64,000 bases of DNA from Planctomycetota bacterium (GCA_021818445.1 JAKAEB010000001.1:16664-80663); one strand, 5' to 3'. Counted from the stretch's first letter, positions 53,713 to 59,167 are shown. Program-made: numbers and translations. The notes: a model not told the origin generated them from the letters alone.

Positions 53713-55296
53713 CTATACAAAGCAAATCTTGCGCGCTGCAAACAGACACATTCTTATCAGCATAAGCCCATGCCGGAAGCGCGAAATATTGGTCGATCCG
53801 TACACACGCTGTTTGTAGTGCACAGGAACATCCGTAATTTTCAGATTCAGCCGCGCCGCACCAAACAACAGATCAAAATCGCCAAACGGATCAAAATCTC
53901 CAAAATATGCCCGATTGGCGGCGATTCGATCGTATTCCATGCGTCTGAGGACCTTGGTACCACATAGCGTGTCCCGAATACTCTGGCCCAACAGAAACGA
54001 AAACGCATAGCCAAAGCCTTTGTTGGCGATCATATTTAAAAACTGCATGGCTTCCGATTCCATCGGATAGACCAATCGCGAACCATTGGCAAATTCCGCC
54101 TTGCCGCTCTGGATCAATTCAAAAAACCGGGGCAGTTCCTCGGGAGGAACGGAAATATCGCCATCCAGAATCGCCAGTACGTCACCGGTTGATTCCGCAA
54201 ACCCCAATCGCACCGCGTCACGCTTTCCCTTGCCGGTCTGGCGGTGGACACTCAAAATCATGTCACCTTGGTAATTGGCTACAGCCTCGTTTACCACATC
54301 CCATGTGTTGTCGGTACTGTGTCCTTCCACGAAAATAACTTCCTGCCGATCGGCAAATTTAGGTATTCGCTTAAGCAGGGGGCCAACATTACCCGCCTCA
54401 TTGCGCAGTGGCACCACAATACTCACGGAAGTTTGTAGTTTGGCTGAATTGTCGCTTGCCATGGTCGAACTGGCCCTTGGTGACAATTCAGAATCGTTTG
54501 CACCACCGGCGGCAGGGGTGTTGGTTTCGCCAGCACAAACAGGGGAATTTAAAGGCCGAGCGATGCATATATTCACCAAACATCCATGCCGCAGCAAAGG
54601 TAATGGTGCCGCCCAGCGATTTATAGCATTGCTCACGACCGGCACACCAAATGGCAGGAGAATAGATGGTTGGTGACGGATTATTTGAAAATCATGCTGA
54701 TACAGGAGGTTTTCCAACTCGTTGGGGGGTATCCAGCTTTCTTCCGGTACAGGACATTTAATACCGAGCAATTCCGCCAGTCTGATGAATGGCTGCCATA
54801 CGCGAGAATAGCTGCAAATAATCAGCCGAGTGCGGGCGTGGCACAGAGGTCTGATTTTTACCAGCAGATTATGGATATCATACACCTGCTGAATCACGCC
54901 GGAGAGAATGATGTAGTCGAAGGTTTCATGGGCTTTGAAGTCGTATTCCTCAATCGGACAGGCGTGAAACCGTAATTGCGGGTAACTTTTCGACGCATGC
55001 TCAATTAAATCGGGATTTAGATCAACGCCCACACCCAACTCGGGTGCCAGTGTGCCAAGTAAGAGGCCGTCGCCACAGCCAATATCCAGAATCTTCGCAC
55101 GTGGCAACACTATCTGGCCGATCAACCGATTGATATATCGGTGCAGATAAATATTCCGCCGCCGACTGGCGGCAAGCCTTCGGGCGTTGGCCTGCTCAAA
55201 TGCGAGCAGGCGTTGACGGTGCTCTTCCTCACCGGGCAGTGCTACGGCCTCATCGGCGGTGTCCAGATTCGCCATGCTTGTGCACTTTCCTTGCAA
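53713..55296 (-). CDS. Fused class I SAM-dependent methyltransferase / family-2 glycosyltransferase
   Basis: N-terminal ILDIGCGDGLL SAM motif. C-terminal VSIVVPLRNEAGNV...ILDGD GT2 (DxD) region. Confidence 0.7.
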   Translation of the reverse strand: MQGKCTSMANLDTADEAVALPGEEEHRQRLLAFEQANARRLAASRRRNIYLHRYINRLIGQIVLPRAKILDIGCGDGLLLGTLAPELGVGVDLNPDLIEHASKSYPQLRFHACPIEEYDFKAHETFDYIILSGVIQQVYDIHNLLVKIRPLCHARTRLIICSYSRVWQPFIRLAELLGIKCPVPEESWIPPNELENLLYQHDFQIIRHQPSILLPFGVPVVSNAINRWAAPLPLLRHGCLVNICIARPLNSPVCAGETNTPAAGGANDSELSPRASSTMASDNSAKLQTSVSIVVPLRNEAGNVGPLLKRIPKFADRQEVIFVEGHSTDNTWDVVNEAVANYQGDMILSVHRQTGKGKRDAVRLGFAESTGDVLAILDGDISVPPEELPRFFELIQSGKAEFANGSRLVYPMESEAMQFLNMIANKGFGYAFSFLLGQSIRDTLCGTKVLRRMEYDRIAANRAYFGDFDPFGDFDLLFGAARLNLKITDVPVHYKQRVYGSTNISRFRHGLMLIRMCLFAARKICFV

Positions 55297-55450: not shown

Positions 55451-56992
55451 TTACGTCGCATCCGAGGCCGCCGATTCGGCCGCACTTGCTTCTGTTTTGG
55501 CTGATTCTGCCTGTGGCTTTTCAGCATCAGCGGCTTGTGCGTCCTGCTGGGCCTTGGCTTGCGCTTCTTCGCGCAGGGCTTTGGCCTTGGCGGCTTTTTC
55601 GTCCTGAATCGTCTTCCATTCCTCTTCACTTATCTCACGCACATTGCAAGATTTAATGAGACCATCGAGGATGCTTGCCTGCACGAGTTCGCGGGTAATC
55701 TGATTGATCAAACCTGTCTGACGGGCCCGCTCGGCAAATTTATCAATGTTTTCTCCAGCTTGCTGGCTTAATTCCAGCAGGCGGTCCATGACTTCCTCGC
55801 GGGATACCTGAATATCTTCCTCGTTGCCGACTATCCCGAGGATAATCTCCCGGATGCAATTCAAACGCGCCTGGGGCGCTATGGCCTGCATCAAGGCACT
55901 GGGGTTCGCCTGTATCTGATCCACCGTAACACCCGCCCCCATCATACGTCGGGCCTGACTCTCAAAGAGAGCCTGGCAATGGCGGGTGTAGTATCGGGTG
56001 GGCAGCGGAAAGGTGATGGCATTTTCCAGAGCCTCCATCATCTGCCCGCGGACGGCATCGTCTGACTGCTGCTGCAATCGTTTGGCCATGGCATCACGCA
56101 TCTGCGCGTGCAGGTCTTCAATGTTTTCAAAACCATTGGAAGTAACAAATTCTTCATCAATTTCAGGCAGCACCAGGTGTGAATTGTGAATAATCTCGCC
56201 CTTAAGCGTCAAATCCACATCGCGCGGTATGGCGCTTTCACTTTCCGGCCCGGCCTTGAAGGTGATTTCAATCGGGTTGCCGGTCGCCTTGCCTAATAAA
56301 TATTCATTAAGACCCGGTATCTGTACATCGGACACAAAGCCCCCGTCAAACACCCGTGAGTATTCCATCTTATGCAGCACCGTACCGTCCGCCCGGGTAA
56401 TCTCACCTTTGATGAATGTTTGATCTCCCTGCTCGATCGGGCCGGCCGCCGGCTGCATGATGCCCATGGTCCGACGCAAATGATCCAAAGCCTTGTTGAT
56501 CCGCTCTTCGGTGACTTCAAACTTTGGTCGCAGCAGACTGATTGCCGTCAGATCGGGCAGCGGAACTTCCGGCAATATCTCAATGTCCAACGTGAAGGTG
56601 AGGGGTCCTTCTTTTGGCATGGTCAAATCGTGCGGTTCGTAGGTAGGCTCTCCAAGCATGCGGAAGTTATTCTCTGCAACGACTGCGTCGAGCACTCGCT
56701 TGATCTGATTTTCGAGAAATTCCCGGCGTAAGCCATCACCGAAACGCTTTTCAATGACACGCTGGGGTGCCCGCCCCTTACGGAAACCAGGCAGCACCAC
56801 TTCGCTCCTCATCACTGCCATTGACGAGTTATAAGCATCCTGCCAGACGGATTCGGGCATGCTCACCTTTACTTTACGTTCCACCGACGAAGCAGCATCG
56901 ATACTCACTTCGCACTTTTTGAGTAGTTCGCTGTCTGTCATTGAATTCGGACCGGAGCCAATATTATCTGTCAATTCGTTTTCTACTGCCAT
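55451..56992 (-). CDS. tig: Trigger factor with Lys/Ala/Glu-rich C-terminal extension
   Basis: Ribosome-binding N-domain, FKBP-like PPIase segment (GEITRADGTVL...FDGG) and C-domain. Acidic/Ala-rich tail AQAKAQQDAQAADAEKPQAESAKTEAS. The start may be the internal MTDSELL. Confidence 0.8.
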   Translation of the reverse strand: MAVENELTDNIGSGPNSMTDSELLKKCEVSIDAASSVERKVKVSMPESVWQDAYNSSMAVMRSEVVLPGFRKGRAPQRVIEKRFGDGLRREFLENQIKRVLDAVVAENNFRMLGEPTYEPHDLTMPKEGPLTFTLDIEILPEVPLPDLTAISLLRPKFEVTEERINKALDHLRRTMGIMQPAAGPIEQGDQTFIKGEITRADGTVLHKMEYSRVFDGGFVSDVQIPGLNEYLLGKATGNPIEITFKAGPESESAIPRDVDLTLKGEIIHNSHLVLPEIDEEFVTSNGFENIEDLHAQMRDAMAKRLQQQSDDAVRGQMMEALENAITFPLPTRYYTRHCQALFESQARRMMGAGVTVDQIQANPSALMQAIAPQARLNCIREIILGIVGNEEDIQVSREEVMDRLLELSQQAGENIDKFAERARQTGLINQITRELVQASILDGLIKSCNVREISEEEWKTIQDEKAAKAKALREEAQAKAQQDAQAADAEKPQAESAKTEASAAESAASDAT

Positions 56993-57313
56993 AAAAAGTT
57001 ACCATCCCTTTTTTAGATGCGAAATAGCTGAAACGGGCAATTGGAATGACGAAACGTGAGTGGCGTCGTGTGCCCACTTGCGCTCATCGCGACCTACGCC
57101 GGTCACCGTGCCGTGCCGATACCTCGCGAAATGCGACCGACAAACTGTCGTACCGCAGCACCGTATGTTAATGCGATACGGTTAAACGCACAAGCGGTTG
57201 TTGACGAGACTGCCGTAAGGCTCTAAACTTCAAACCGTTGGCGGGCGGAAGGGGCGAAGTGGTTCGCGCCGCCCGAGAAAGTCCATTGTGATATGAAAAG
57301 GTCGGAGTAATAG

Positions 57314-57394
57314 ATGCCCAAACCGCGCAGAAGACGAAAAATCGGTAGTAAAAAGCGACATGCCAAGTGGAAGGCGCGTCATCACATTCAGTGA
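57314..57394 (+). CDS. 26-aa ultra-basic peptide (candidate tiny ribosomal-type protein)
   Basis: MPKPRRRRKIGSKKRHAKWKARHHIQ. GGTCGGAG upstream. Immediately followed by a strong terminator. Too short to be in the track. Confidence 0.35.
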   Translation: MPKPRRRRKIGSKKRHAKWKARHHIQ

Positions 57395-57444
57395 TCGCTC
57401 GCCGCCTCTCCGTGGCTACACAAAAAAATCAGCTTACCAAACTT

Positions 57445-57490
57445 GGAGTTGGGGTGTCGTCAAAACACCCCAACTCCAGTTTTCTTTTGG
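57445..57490. terminator. Bidirectional rho-independent terminator (13-bp stem)
   Basis: GGAGTTGGGGTGT-cgtcaaa-ACACCCCAACTCC with AGTTTTCTTTTGG on the plus side and AAGTTTGG...ATTTTTTT on the minus side. Sits between the tiny ORF end and the leuA stop. Confidence 0.65.
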
Positions 57491-57514
57491 CGTGAAGGCA
57501 CTCGGCCCCCAACG

Positions 57515-59086
<1,572 letters not shown>

Positions 59087-59102
59087 GGCGCTACTCCATA
59101 GT

Positions 59103-59136
59103 AAAACAAAAAACCCCGCGATTTTGGCTCGCAGGG
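59103..59136 (-). terminator. leu attenuator terminator hairpin + U-tract
   Basis: Minus strand: CCCTGCGA-gccaaaa-TCGCGGGG followed by TTTTTTGTTTT, ~17 nt before the leuA ATG. Confidence 0.55.
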
Positions 59137-59167
59137 TTTCAGGATCAATCAAAAATAATGGAACACC

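Follow-up and report, generated by a model that had tools for sequence, protein, structure and literature searches.

The stretch of DNA analysed here, referred to below as the window, comprises 64,000 nucleotides from the metagenome-assembled genome of a Planctomycetota bacterium (GCA_021818445.1, JAKAEB010000001.1:16664-80663). The locus of interest lies between two genes on the minus strand, tig, which encodes trigger factor (55451..56992), and leuA, which encodes 2-isopropylmalate synthase (57515..59152, with its stop at 57515). Between them, the plus strand carries a gene of 26 codons plus a stop (57314..57394) that is divergent from tig, is met head-on by the convergent leuA, and encodes the peptide MPKPRRRRKIGSKKRHAKWKARHHIQ. 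Fifteen of its 26 residues (58%) are Lys (six), Arg (six), or His (three), and the translation is identical to that in an earlier note on this DNA, which had singled out an ultra-basic ORF with 15 of 26 such residues. This ORF is the sole case with at least 45% K/R/H among the 301 ATG-initiated ORFs of 20-40 aa in the window, and is still unique there at that threshold when GTG and TTG starts are admitted. No gene is called at 57314..57394, or at the equivalent locus of relatives, in the source annotations.

The small gene is equipped with its own expression signals. A consensus scan predicts a sigma-70-type promoter on the plus strand at 57201..57229, consisting of TTGACG (57201-57206), a 17-nt spacer, and TAAACT (57224-57229). 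Both TTGACG and the -10 element are kept in the related loci L008 and L010, and equivalent TTGACG-N17/18-TAnAnT sites are present in L014, L015, L017, and L052. Transcription would accordingly begin near 57236, giving a 5' UTR of ∼78 nt (57236..57313, plus strand) whose 5' end is placed from the promoter. The earlier note had ascribed to the ORF its own ribosome-binding site, and this is confirmed as a Shine-Dalgarno GGAG at 57304..57307, located 6 nt before the ATG; a GGAG-like element likewise occurs no more than 20 nt before the start codon at 116 of the 121 homologous loci listed.

A 230-bp leader containing the elements GGCGGGCGG and CCGCCCG had also been described. Both elements exist, GGCGGGCGG at 57240..57248 and its complement CCGCCCG at 57269..57275, each on the plus strand inside the 5' UTR, but the leader itself is shortened to ∼80 nt by the promoter at 57201..57229, whose conservation means that the 321-bp intergenic region is not a 230-nt leader of the 26-codon ORF. 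The accompanying suggestion of autoregulation is not borne out: the leader is no more stably folded than its shuffles (z = 0.39; 126 of 200 shuffles at least as stable), neither a consensus structure nor covariation was found across four members of the clade, and in more distant relatives the leaders are ∼35-45 nt long and do not contain the GGCGGGCGG/CCGCCCG hairpin. Rfam searches, conducted over the whole window at the gathering threshold and over 56900-57600 at E ≤ 10, returned only chance snoRNA-like matches. A structured autoregulatory leader or attenuator was therefore rejected, there being no conserved fold, no Rfam family, and a convergent gene next in line.

On its 3' side, the small gene is followed by an intrinsic terminator at 57443..57489 on the plus strand, composed of a stem-loop (57443-57479) and a U-tract (57480-57489). 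The stem comprises 15 pairs (8 G-C and one G-U) closed by a 7-nt loop and leads on the plus strand directly into TTTTCTTTTG, the arrangement of a Rho-independent terminator. A folding energy of -38.1 kcal/mol (z = -5.9) was computed for the 3' region, a stability reached by none of 200 shuffles. The hairpin begins 48 nt past the small-gene stop codon, and a further 35 nt separate it from the leuA stop on its other side, so the strong terminator previously reported as a 13-bp stem at 50 nt stands with slightly revised dimensions. L008 and L010 both retain it, with changes that preserve the pairing (GGGG/CCCC becomes GAGG/CCTC, for example), so the hairpin does function for the small gene. The further proposal that this terminator is bidirectional and shared with leuA holds in part: leuA does converge on the hairpin, but when read on the minus strand, from the leuA side, the stem is followed by AAGUUUGGUAAG, with no canonical U-tract and no terminator called by the scan. 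It is plausible from this layout that the hairpin acts in both directions, asymmetrically. With leuA on the opposite strand and the ORF possessing its own promoter, Shine-Dalgarno sequence, and terminator, the region is a separate gene and not the leuA 3' UTR. A predicted promoter, a ∼80-nt leader, a strong Shine-Dalgarno sequence, and an intrinsic terminator together mark the 26-codon ORF as a real gene with transcription of its own.

Another, ultra-conserved portion of the intergenic region belongs to tig. A block of ∼95 nt on the minus strand (57045..57140, with flanks extending to about 57000..57150) is nearly 100% identical across lineages whose trigger factors are only 51-61% identical, and it remains upstream of tig even in L012, which has a different gene on the far side. 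Since the block travels with tig and not with the 26-codon ORF, it can be assigned to tig as a 5'-leader element on the minus strand. Its consensus fold is predicted to be multi-stemmed (-35 kcal/mol) with no covariation, as is to be expected of a block with so little variation. Only one copy occurs in the window, and no Rfam family is matched. The block may represent a structured 5' leader, or a regulatory RNA, of the trigger-factor gene. Upstream of it, at about 57160..57200 on the minus strand, the alignment reveals a GCTTGTG...TAACAT element conserved in all relatives, which looks like a putative tig promoter placed back-to-back with that of the small gene. The trigger factor of the window has 26-28% identity with its nearest named counterparts, from Phycisphaerae and Sedimentisphaerales. 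The next gene after tig on the same strand (53713..55296) encodes a 520-aa fused methyltransferase and glycosyltransferase-2 protein; beyond it, also on the minus strand, lies a gene for a 296-aa TPR protein with two matches to PF03118 (RNA polymerase alpha C-terminal domain), an unusual combination. These two genes downstream of tig correspond to L001 4718..7298.

The peptide is conserved well beyond the point at which its DNA has diverged. The ORF occupies the same place in relatives whose trigger factors are 61% and 58% identical to that of the window, and 25 of the 26 residues are the same there, the sole change being I25L, while the differences in the ORF DNA are mainly synonymous. Comparison with the more distant L015 yields 13 synonymous codon changes and 2 replacements, and L062 encodes an identical peptide though 13 of ∼16 synonymous sites have changed. 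Family-wide, synonymous divergence is saturated (pS ∼0.9). Across 28 diverse members, 13 of the 26 positions are invariant (M1, K3, P4, R5-R8, K9, G11, S12, K13, K14, and R15); residues 3-15 are nearly invariant as a block, with Ile or Val at position 10, and residue 2 is always Pro, Ala, Ser, or Gly, comparable to the MP and MG starts of bS22. A small residue at position 2 would allow the initiator Met to be cleaved off. The peptide is under protein-level purifying selection. An earlier caveat had been that the ORF might prove not to be conserved in relatives and the peptide to have arisen by chance in GC-rich sequence; with the frame kept phylum-wide under strong purifying selection, that account is refuted.

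The extent of the family was assessed by scanning one genome per species with a degenerate DNA pattern for PRRRRK[IV]GSKKR. At least 120 species-representative genomes match, where by our own calculation ∼0.1 chance matches would be expected, and about 115 of those listed are labelled Planctomycetota. Among the 120 listed stretches, 119 contain a complete ORF of 24-27 codons, 117 have an ATG start, and 78 distinct peptides are represented. The consensus is a peptide of 24-27 residues with M[APSG]KPRRRRK[IV]GSKKR followed by a basic tail. The listed matches carry the labels Phycisphaerae, Tepidisphaerales, Sedimentisphaerales, Pirellulales, Planctomycetales, and Planctomycetaceae, and thus span both Phycisphaerae and Planctomycetia. 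The few other labels among them (Aegiribacteria, Bacillota, and "uncultured bacterium") probably reflect binning, labelling, or taxonomy errors and not true occurrences outside the phylum.

Public annotation of the family is sparse and distorted. Protein searches, which used a tandem-doubled peptide as query and then a profile of the first matches, recovered proteins that end in the peptide: it makes up their last 24-26 residues and always starts from a Met, behind unrelated N-terminal extensions that are evidently spurious; gene callers thus either miss the small gene or lengthen it with false N-termini. An exact-sequence look-up of the window peptide found no entry, and the exact peptides of other variants are present in public collections only as unnamed or "hypothetical" proteins (JGI calls). 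The literature consulted reports neither the sequence motif nor bS22, bL37, or eL41 in connection with Planctomycetes, and no planctomycete ribosome structure was found by PDB sequence search or in the literature. With no model, name, or paper found, the family appears to be undescribed. Apparently most planctomycete genomes carry a 24-27-codon gene that Pfam and NCBIfam do not model, and a profile based on the family would correct thousands of annotations.

The genomic context of the small gene differs between lineages. An ASKHA/2Fe-2S protein is encoded downstream in 40 of the listed loci and leuA is a neighbour in 12, while elsewhere the gene lies next to an ECF sigma factor, an AIRS-domain gene, or others. 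Clustering of the neighbours of the listed loci uncovered no translation-related linkage, tig being a clade-specific exception at the present locus. Because neighbours vary between lineages, this is a stand-alone gene for a trans-acting peptide, and a cis-acting leader peptide is excluded. The locus labelled Candidatus Aegiribacteria (L021) has upstream sequence and neighbour families in common with the planctomycete loci L019 and L028; the other non-planctomycete-labelled match noted with it, L044, is labelled Bacillota.

Small size, extreme charge, a sequence frozen throughout the phylum, a stand-alone gene, and strong expression signals together fit a peptide held in a fixed rRNA pocket, and the known small ribosomal proteins are likewise encoded by stand-alone genes, invariant within a phylum, and usually unannotated. 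The earlier note had likened the peptide to tiny rRNA-binding ribosomal proteins of the bS22/bL36 class. As a general statement this remains the best available reading, albeit one to which no curated model or PDB chain lends a match; within the named class, bS22 is weakly favoured and bL36 is not, as the latter falls below its shuffles (z = -0.16) and the peptide has no Cys. The bS22 protein is a bent basic helix of ∼30 aa that lies between h44 and h45 of 16S rRNA, contacts H68/H70 of 23S rRNA, and is structurally analogous to eL41 and mS38 (PMC10618245; PMC12123416). We consider it somewhat better than an even chance (probability about 0.55) that the peptide is the planctomycete counterpart of bS22/eL41, a ribosomal protein in the h44/h45 interface pocket, and we infer that it would sit on the ribosome, in the bS22 pocket. 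The peptide would then form a short, bent basic helix between 16S h44 and h45 at the subunit interface, contacting 23S H68/H70, and would be buried in rRNA as the equivalent of the bS22 of Actinobacteria, Bacteroidota, and Borrelia, of eL41, and of the mS38 C-terminus.

Searches with existing models neither place the peptide nor speak strongly against this assignment. The window peptide and seven other variants match no Pfam or NCBIfam family at E ≤ 10, and no PDB chain is matched by the peptide (phmmer) or by the family profile, even at E ≤ 10. As controls, the bS22 of Mycobacterium smegmatis (Msm) matches both PF08213 (COX24_C) and NF047430 (ribo_bS22), at 4e-12 and 2.7e-17, whereas those of Flavobacterium johnsoniae (Fjo) and Borrelia burgdorferi (Bbu), which were recognised in cryo-EM maps (PMC10618245, Supplementary Note 1; PDB 7jil and 8fmw), match neither. 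As the two models miss validated bS22 proteins from Fjo and Bbu, they do not define the whole structural family, and a negative result for the window peptide is weak evidence. Escape from annotation is moreover known for bS22 itself, which is unannotated in Borrelia and "hypothetical" in Porphyromonas gingivalis (PMC10618245, Supplementary Note 1; PMC12123416).

Direct comparison of the family with bS22 required attention to composition, since the HMMER null2 correction dominated the scores; the tests were therefore repeated with --nonull2 and composition-preserving shuffles. The family HMM recognises Msm bS22 with z = 2.8 and p = 0.014, Borrelia bS22 with p = 0.07, and Fjo bS22 with p = 0.17. 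In the reverse direction, an Msm-type bS22 profile yields p = 0.005 against the window peptide and an Fjo-type profile p = 0.03-0.07 against three family members, values that, across the full range of 0.005-0.17, would fail a strict multiple-test correction. The validated subtypes recognise each other less well, with p = 0.35 for Msm bS22 against the Fjo-type profile and p = 0.63 for Fjo bS22 against the Msm-type profile. Profile-profile alignment with hhalign gave two ungapped matches of 16 columns, KPRRRRKIGSKKRHAK to KKRKRHKVATHKRKKR (P = 0.006) and RRKIGSKKRHAKWKAR to RRKRMSKKKHRKLLRR (56% identity, P = 0.004), each with a probability of only 6-9%, while the validated Fjo and Msm subtypes aligned over just 5 columns. 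The alignments of the family to the Fjo and Msm types are one residue out of register with the alignment of Fjo to Msm. The family would thus resemble both bS22 subtypes weakly, at least as well as the subtypes resemble each other, and sequence alone cannot establish its membership. The comparison with short ribosomal-protein models proposed at the outset has accordingly left bS22 membership unproven, with no curated match, while bringing out a weak similarity to bS22 that may go beyond composition.

The same observations could also describe a micro-protein bound to the ribosome or rRNA at a site other than that of bS22, as a new Planctomycetota-specific ribosomal protein or ribosome-associated factor, the main alternative, though a reading we regard as rather unlikely. 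Conservation, charge, size, and the stand-alone gene serve it equally, the resemblance to bS22 is not strong enough to say where the peptide binds, and the NCBIfam model NF047429 demonstrates that lineage-specific tiny ribosomal proteins occur in the phylum. That model is not matched by the peptide, however, and similarity above background was found to bS22 subtypes only, with none to bL37, THX, bL34, bL36, or eL41.

A role away from the ribosome, as a protamine-like compaction factor for the condensed nucleoid or as an RNA chaperone, would be suggested by the arginine tract (PRRRR), the extreme positive charge, and the distribution of the family over a phylum described as having highly condensed nucleoids (PMC13450696). 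Against such a nucleic-acid binder stand the 13 positions that are invariant phylum-wide despite saturated synonymous sites. Strict invariance of this kind fits a specific, fixed macromolecular pocket. Rapid evolution is the rule for protamines and other proteins that bind DNA non-specifically. We therefore judge this account improbable. That the peptide is something other than the bS22 equivalent, either a Planctomycetota-specific ribosomal protein of a new site or a protamine-like nucleoid peptide, is on the whole doubtful; it would in that case be phylum-defining and missed by every pipeline.

Descent from ribosomal protein S14 (type Z), with the peptide as a truncated paralogue of its N-terminal segment, was considered on account of a local resemblance between the canonical S14 found in related planctomycetes (...PPKWKVRHHNRC...) and the end of the window peptide (...KWKARHHIQ*), and of an empirical p = 0.001 for the family HMM against the S14 N-terminus, a comparison chosen post hoc. 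The resemblance is limited to 7 residues, which fall in the C-terminal half, where the family varies; it is absent from the 24-25-aa subfamilies (...KARRDRRKR), and leaves the invariant N-terminal core with no S14 counterpart. No match to the S14 domain PF00253 was found, and the ORF ends before any zinc ribbon. The 660-bp contig L014 (1..660; ENA ERZ27251699 k141_399710) encodes a 64-aa "protein" in which the first 24 residues of the peptide run into the S14 zinc-ribbon half, with the beginning of rpsH coming next (compare L139 1495..1750), and would at face value speak for a relationship. Its 3' part, however, hardly differs from the usual spc-operon contigs, nor does its 5' part from loci where the peptide gene stands alone, and the switch falls within the ∼22 nt, coding for KWK[AV]RHH, that the peptide gene and canonical rpsN have in common, so that L014 is probably an assembly chimera. 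Given the short similarity and the chimera-like contig, S14 descent and a genuine peptide-S14 fusion were both set aside, and the paralogue reading is very unlikely.

Finally, although the ORF is very short, has four consecutive Arg codons, and is followed by a terminator, it is scarcely conceivable that it arose by chance in GC-rich intergenic DNA, or that it acts in cis on a neighbouring gene as a uORF or Arg-codon leader peptide, given in-frame conservation in 119 of 120 listed species despite saturated synonymous change, a nearly invariant K[IV]GSKKR segment that is not Arg-based, and downstream genes that differ by lineage; an attenuator was rejected on the same ground, the next gene here being convergent and leaving nothing to attenuate.

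If the peptide is indeed located on the ribosome, the class of interface peptides formed by bS22, eL41, and mS38 would reach a fourth bacterial lineage. Loss of bS22 makes M. smegmatis more sensitive to kanamycin. In mycobacteria and in the mitochondria of yeast, the class influences how h44 moves and how readily aminoglycosides gain access (PMC12123416; preprint 10.1101/2023.03.31.535098). Further bS22-type peptides in other bacteria have been explicitly predicted (PMC10618245; PMC12123416), and the assignment, if true, would support the prediction that unannotated peptides fill the h44/h45 pocket in many bacteria (PMC10618245). It also provides a named candidate for the first planctomycete ribosome map.

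The peptide can be compared with several known systems. With S14 type Z it shares a KWK[AV]RHH heptapeptide, for which related planctomycetes use almost identical codons, but this motif is confined to one subfamily of the peptide, and the remainder is unrelated. Among the other tiny ribosomal proteins, eL41, bL37, THX, bL36, and bL34 all gave z ≤ 0.04 against the family HMM in shuffle tests, the individual values being -0.16 for bL36, -0.47 for THX, and -0.93 for bL34, with test sequences for these three that were entered by hand. Neither bL36, bTHX, nor bL34 is suggested by a Pfam or NCBIfam match, and the peptide, having no Cys, does not contain the zinc-ribbon motif of bL36. A regex search for bL37-, bS22-, and THX-like ORFs in ∼1 Mb of planctomycete DNA, a sample too small to carry weight, found none.

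The bL37 ribosomal protein is similarly tiny and basic (24-32 aa, with an MAKRGRKKR N-terminus), and its gene too stands alone, but the family does not contain its SKANHGKRP motif and the shuffle test yields z = 0.04. NCBIfam includes a planctomycete-specific model for the 50S ribosomal protein bL37, NF047429 (ribo_Plancto_bL37), of 32 positions, which means that a tiny ribosomal protein specific to this lineage had been recognised by curators before, one distinct from the 26-aa family. Neither this model nor NF047428 (mycobacterial bL37) is matched by the peptide, while Msm bL37, used as a control, matches both.

The eL41 protein of eukaryotes and archaea (25 aa) is like the family (24-27 aa) in size class and charge, but a sequence signal is absent (z = -0.95 against the family HMM), and human eL41 matches PF05162 (3.9e-12) whereas the window peptide does not. 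Both eL41 and, in mitochondria, the helix at the C-terminus of mS38 (AURKAIP1/COX24) are regarded as structural analogues of bS22 that occupy the same h44/h45 pocket and form an intersubunit bridge (PMC10618245; PMC12123416).

The closest comparison is with bS22 itself, whose general profile (∼30 residues, ∼60% K/R, stand-alone, and phylum-invariant) the family shares at a slightly smaller size. In Borrelia, bS22 alone among the ribosomal proteins escaped mass spectrometry; trypsin would cut the planctomycete peptide into very short fragments. Validated bS22 proteins measure 28-33 aa, with 33 aa in the type of M. smegmatis and Cutibacterium acnes and 28-31 aa in that of F. johnsoniae, P. gingivalis, and B. 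burgdorferi, compared to 24-27 aa in the planctomycete family, and the invariant KPRRRRK[IV]GSKKR core is peculiar to the latter and absent from bS22. In both, a tiny stand-alone ultra-basic peptide with about 58-61% K/R(/H) starts with Met and a small residue, is near-invariant within its phylum, and is usually missed or called "hypothetical" in annotation. Both also follow a basic run with a hydrophobic/small-residue motif and further basic residues, which reads KIGSKKR here and KVATHKR, KISTHKR, or RMSKKK in bS22.
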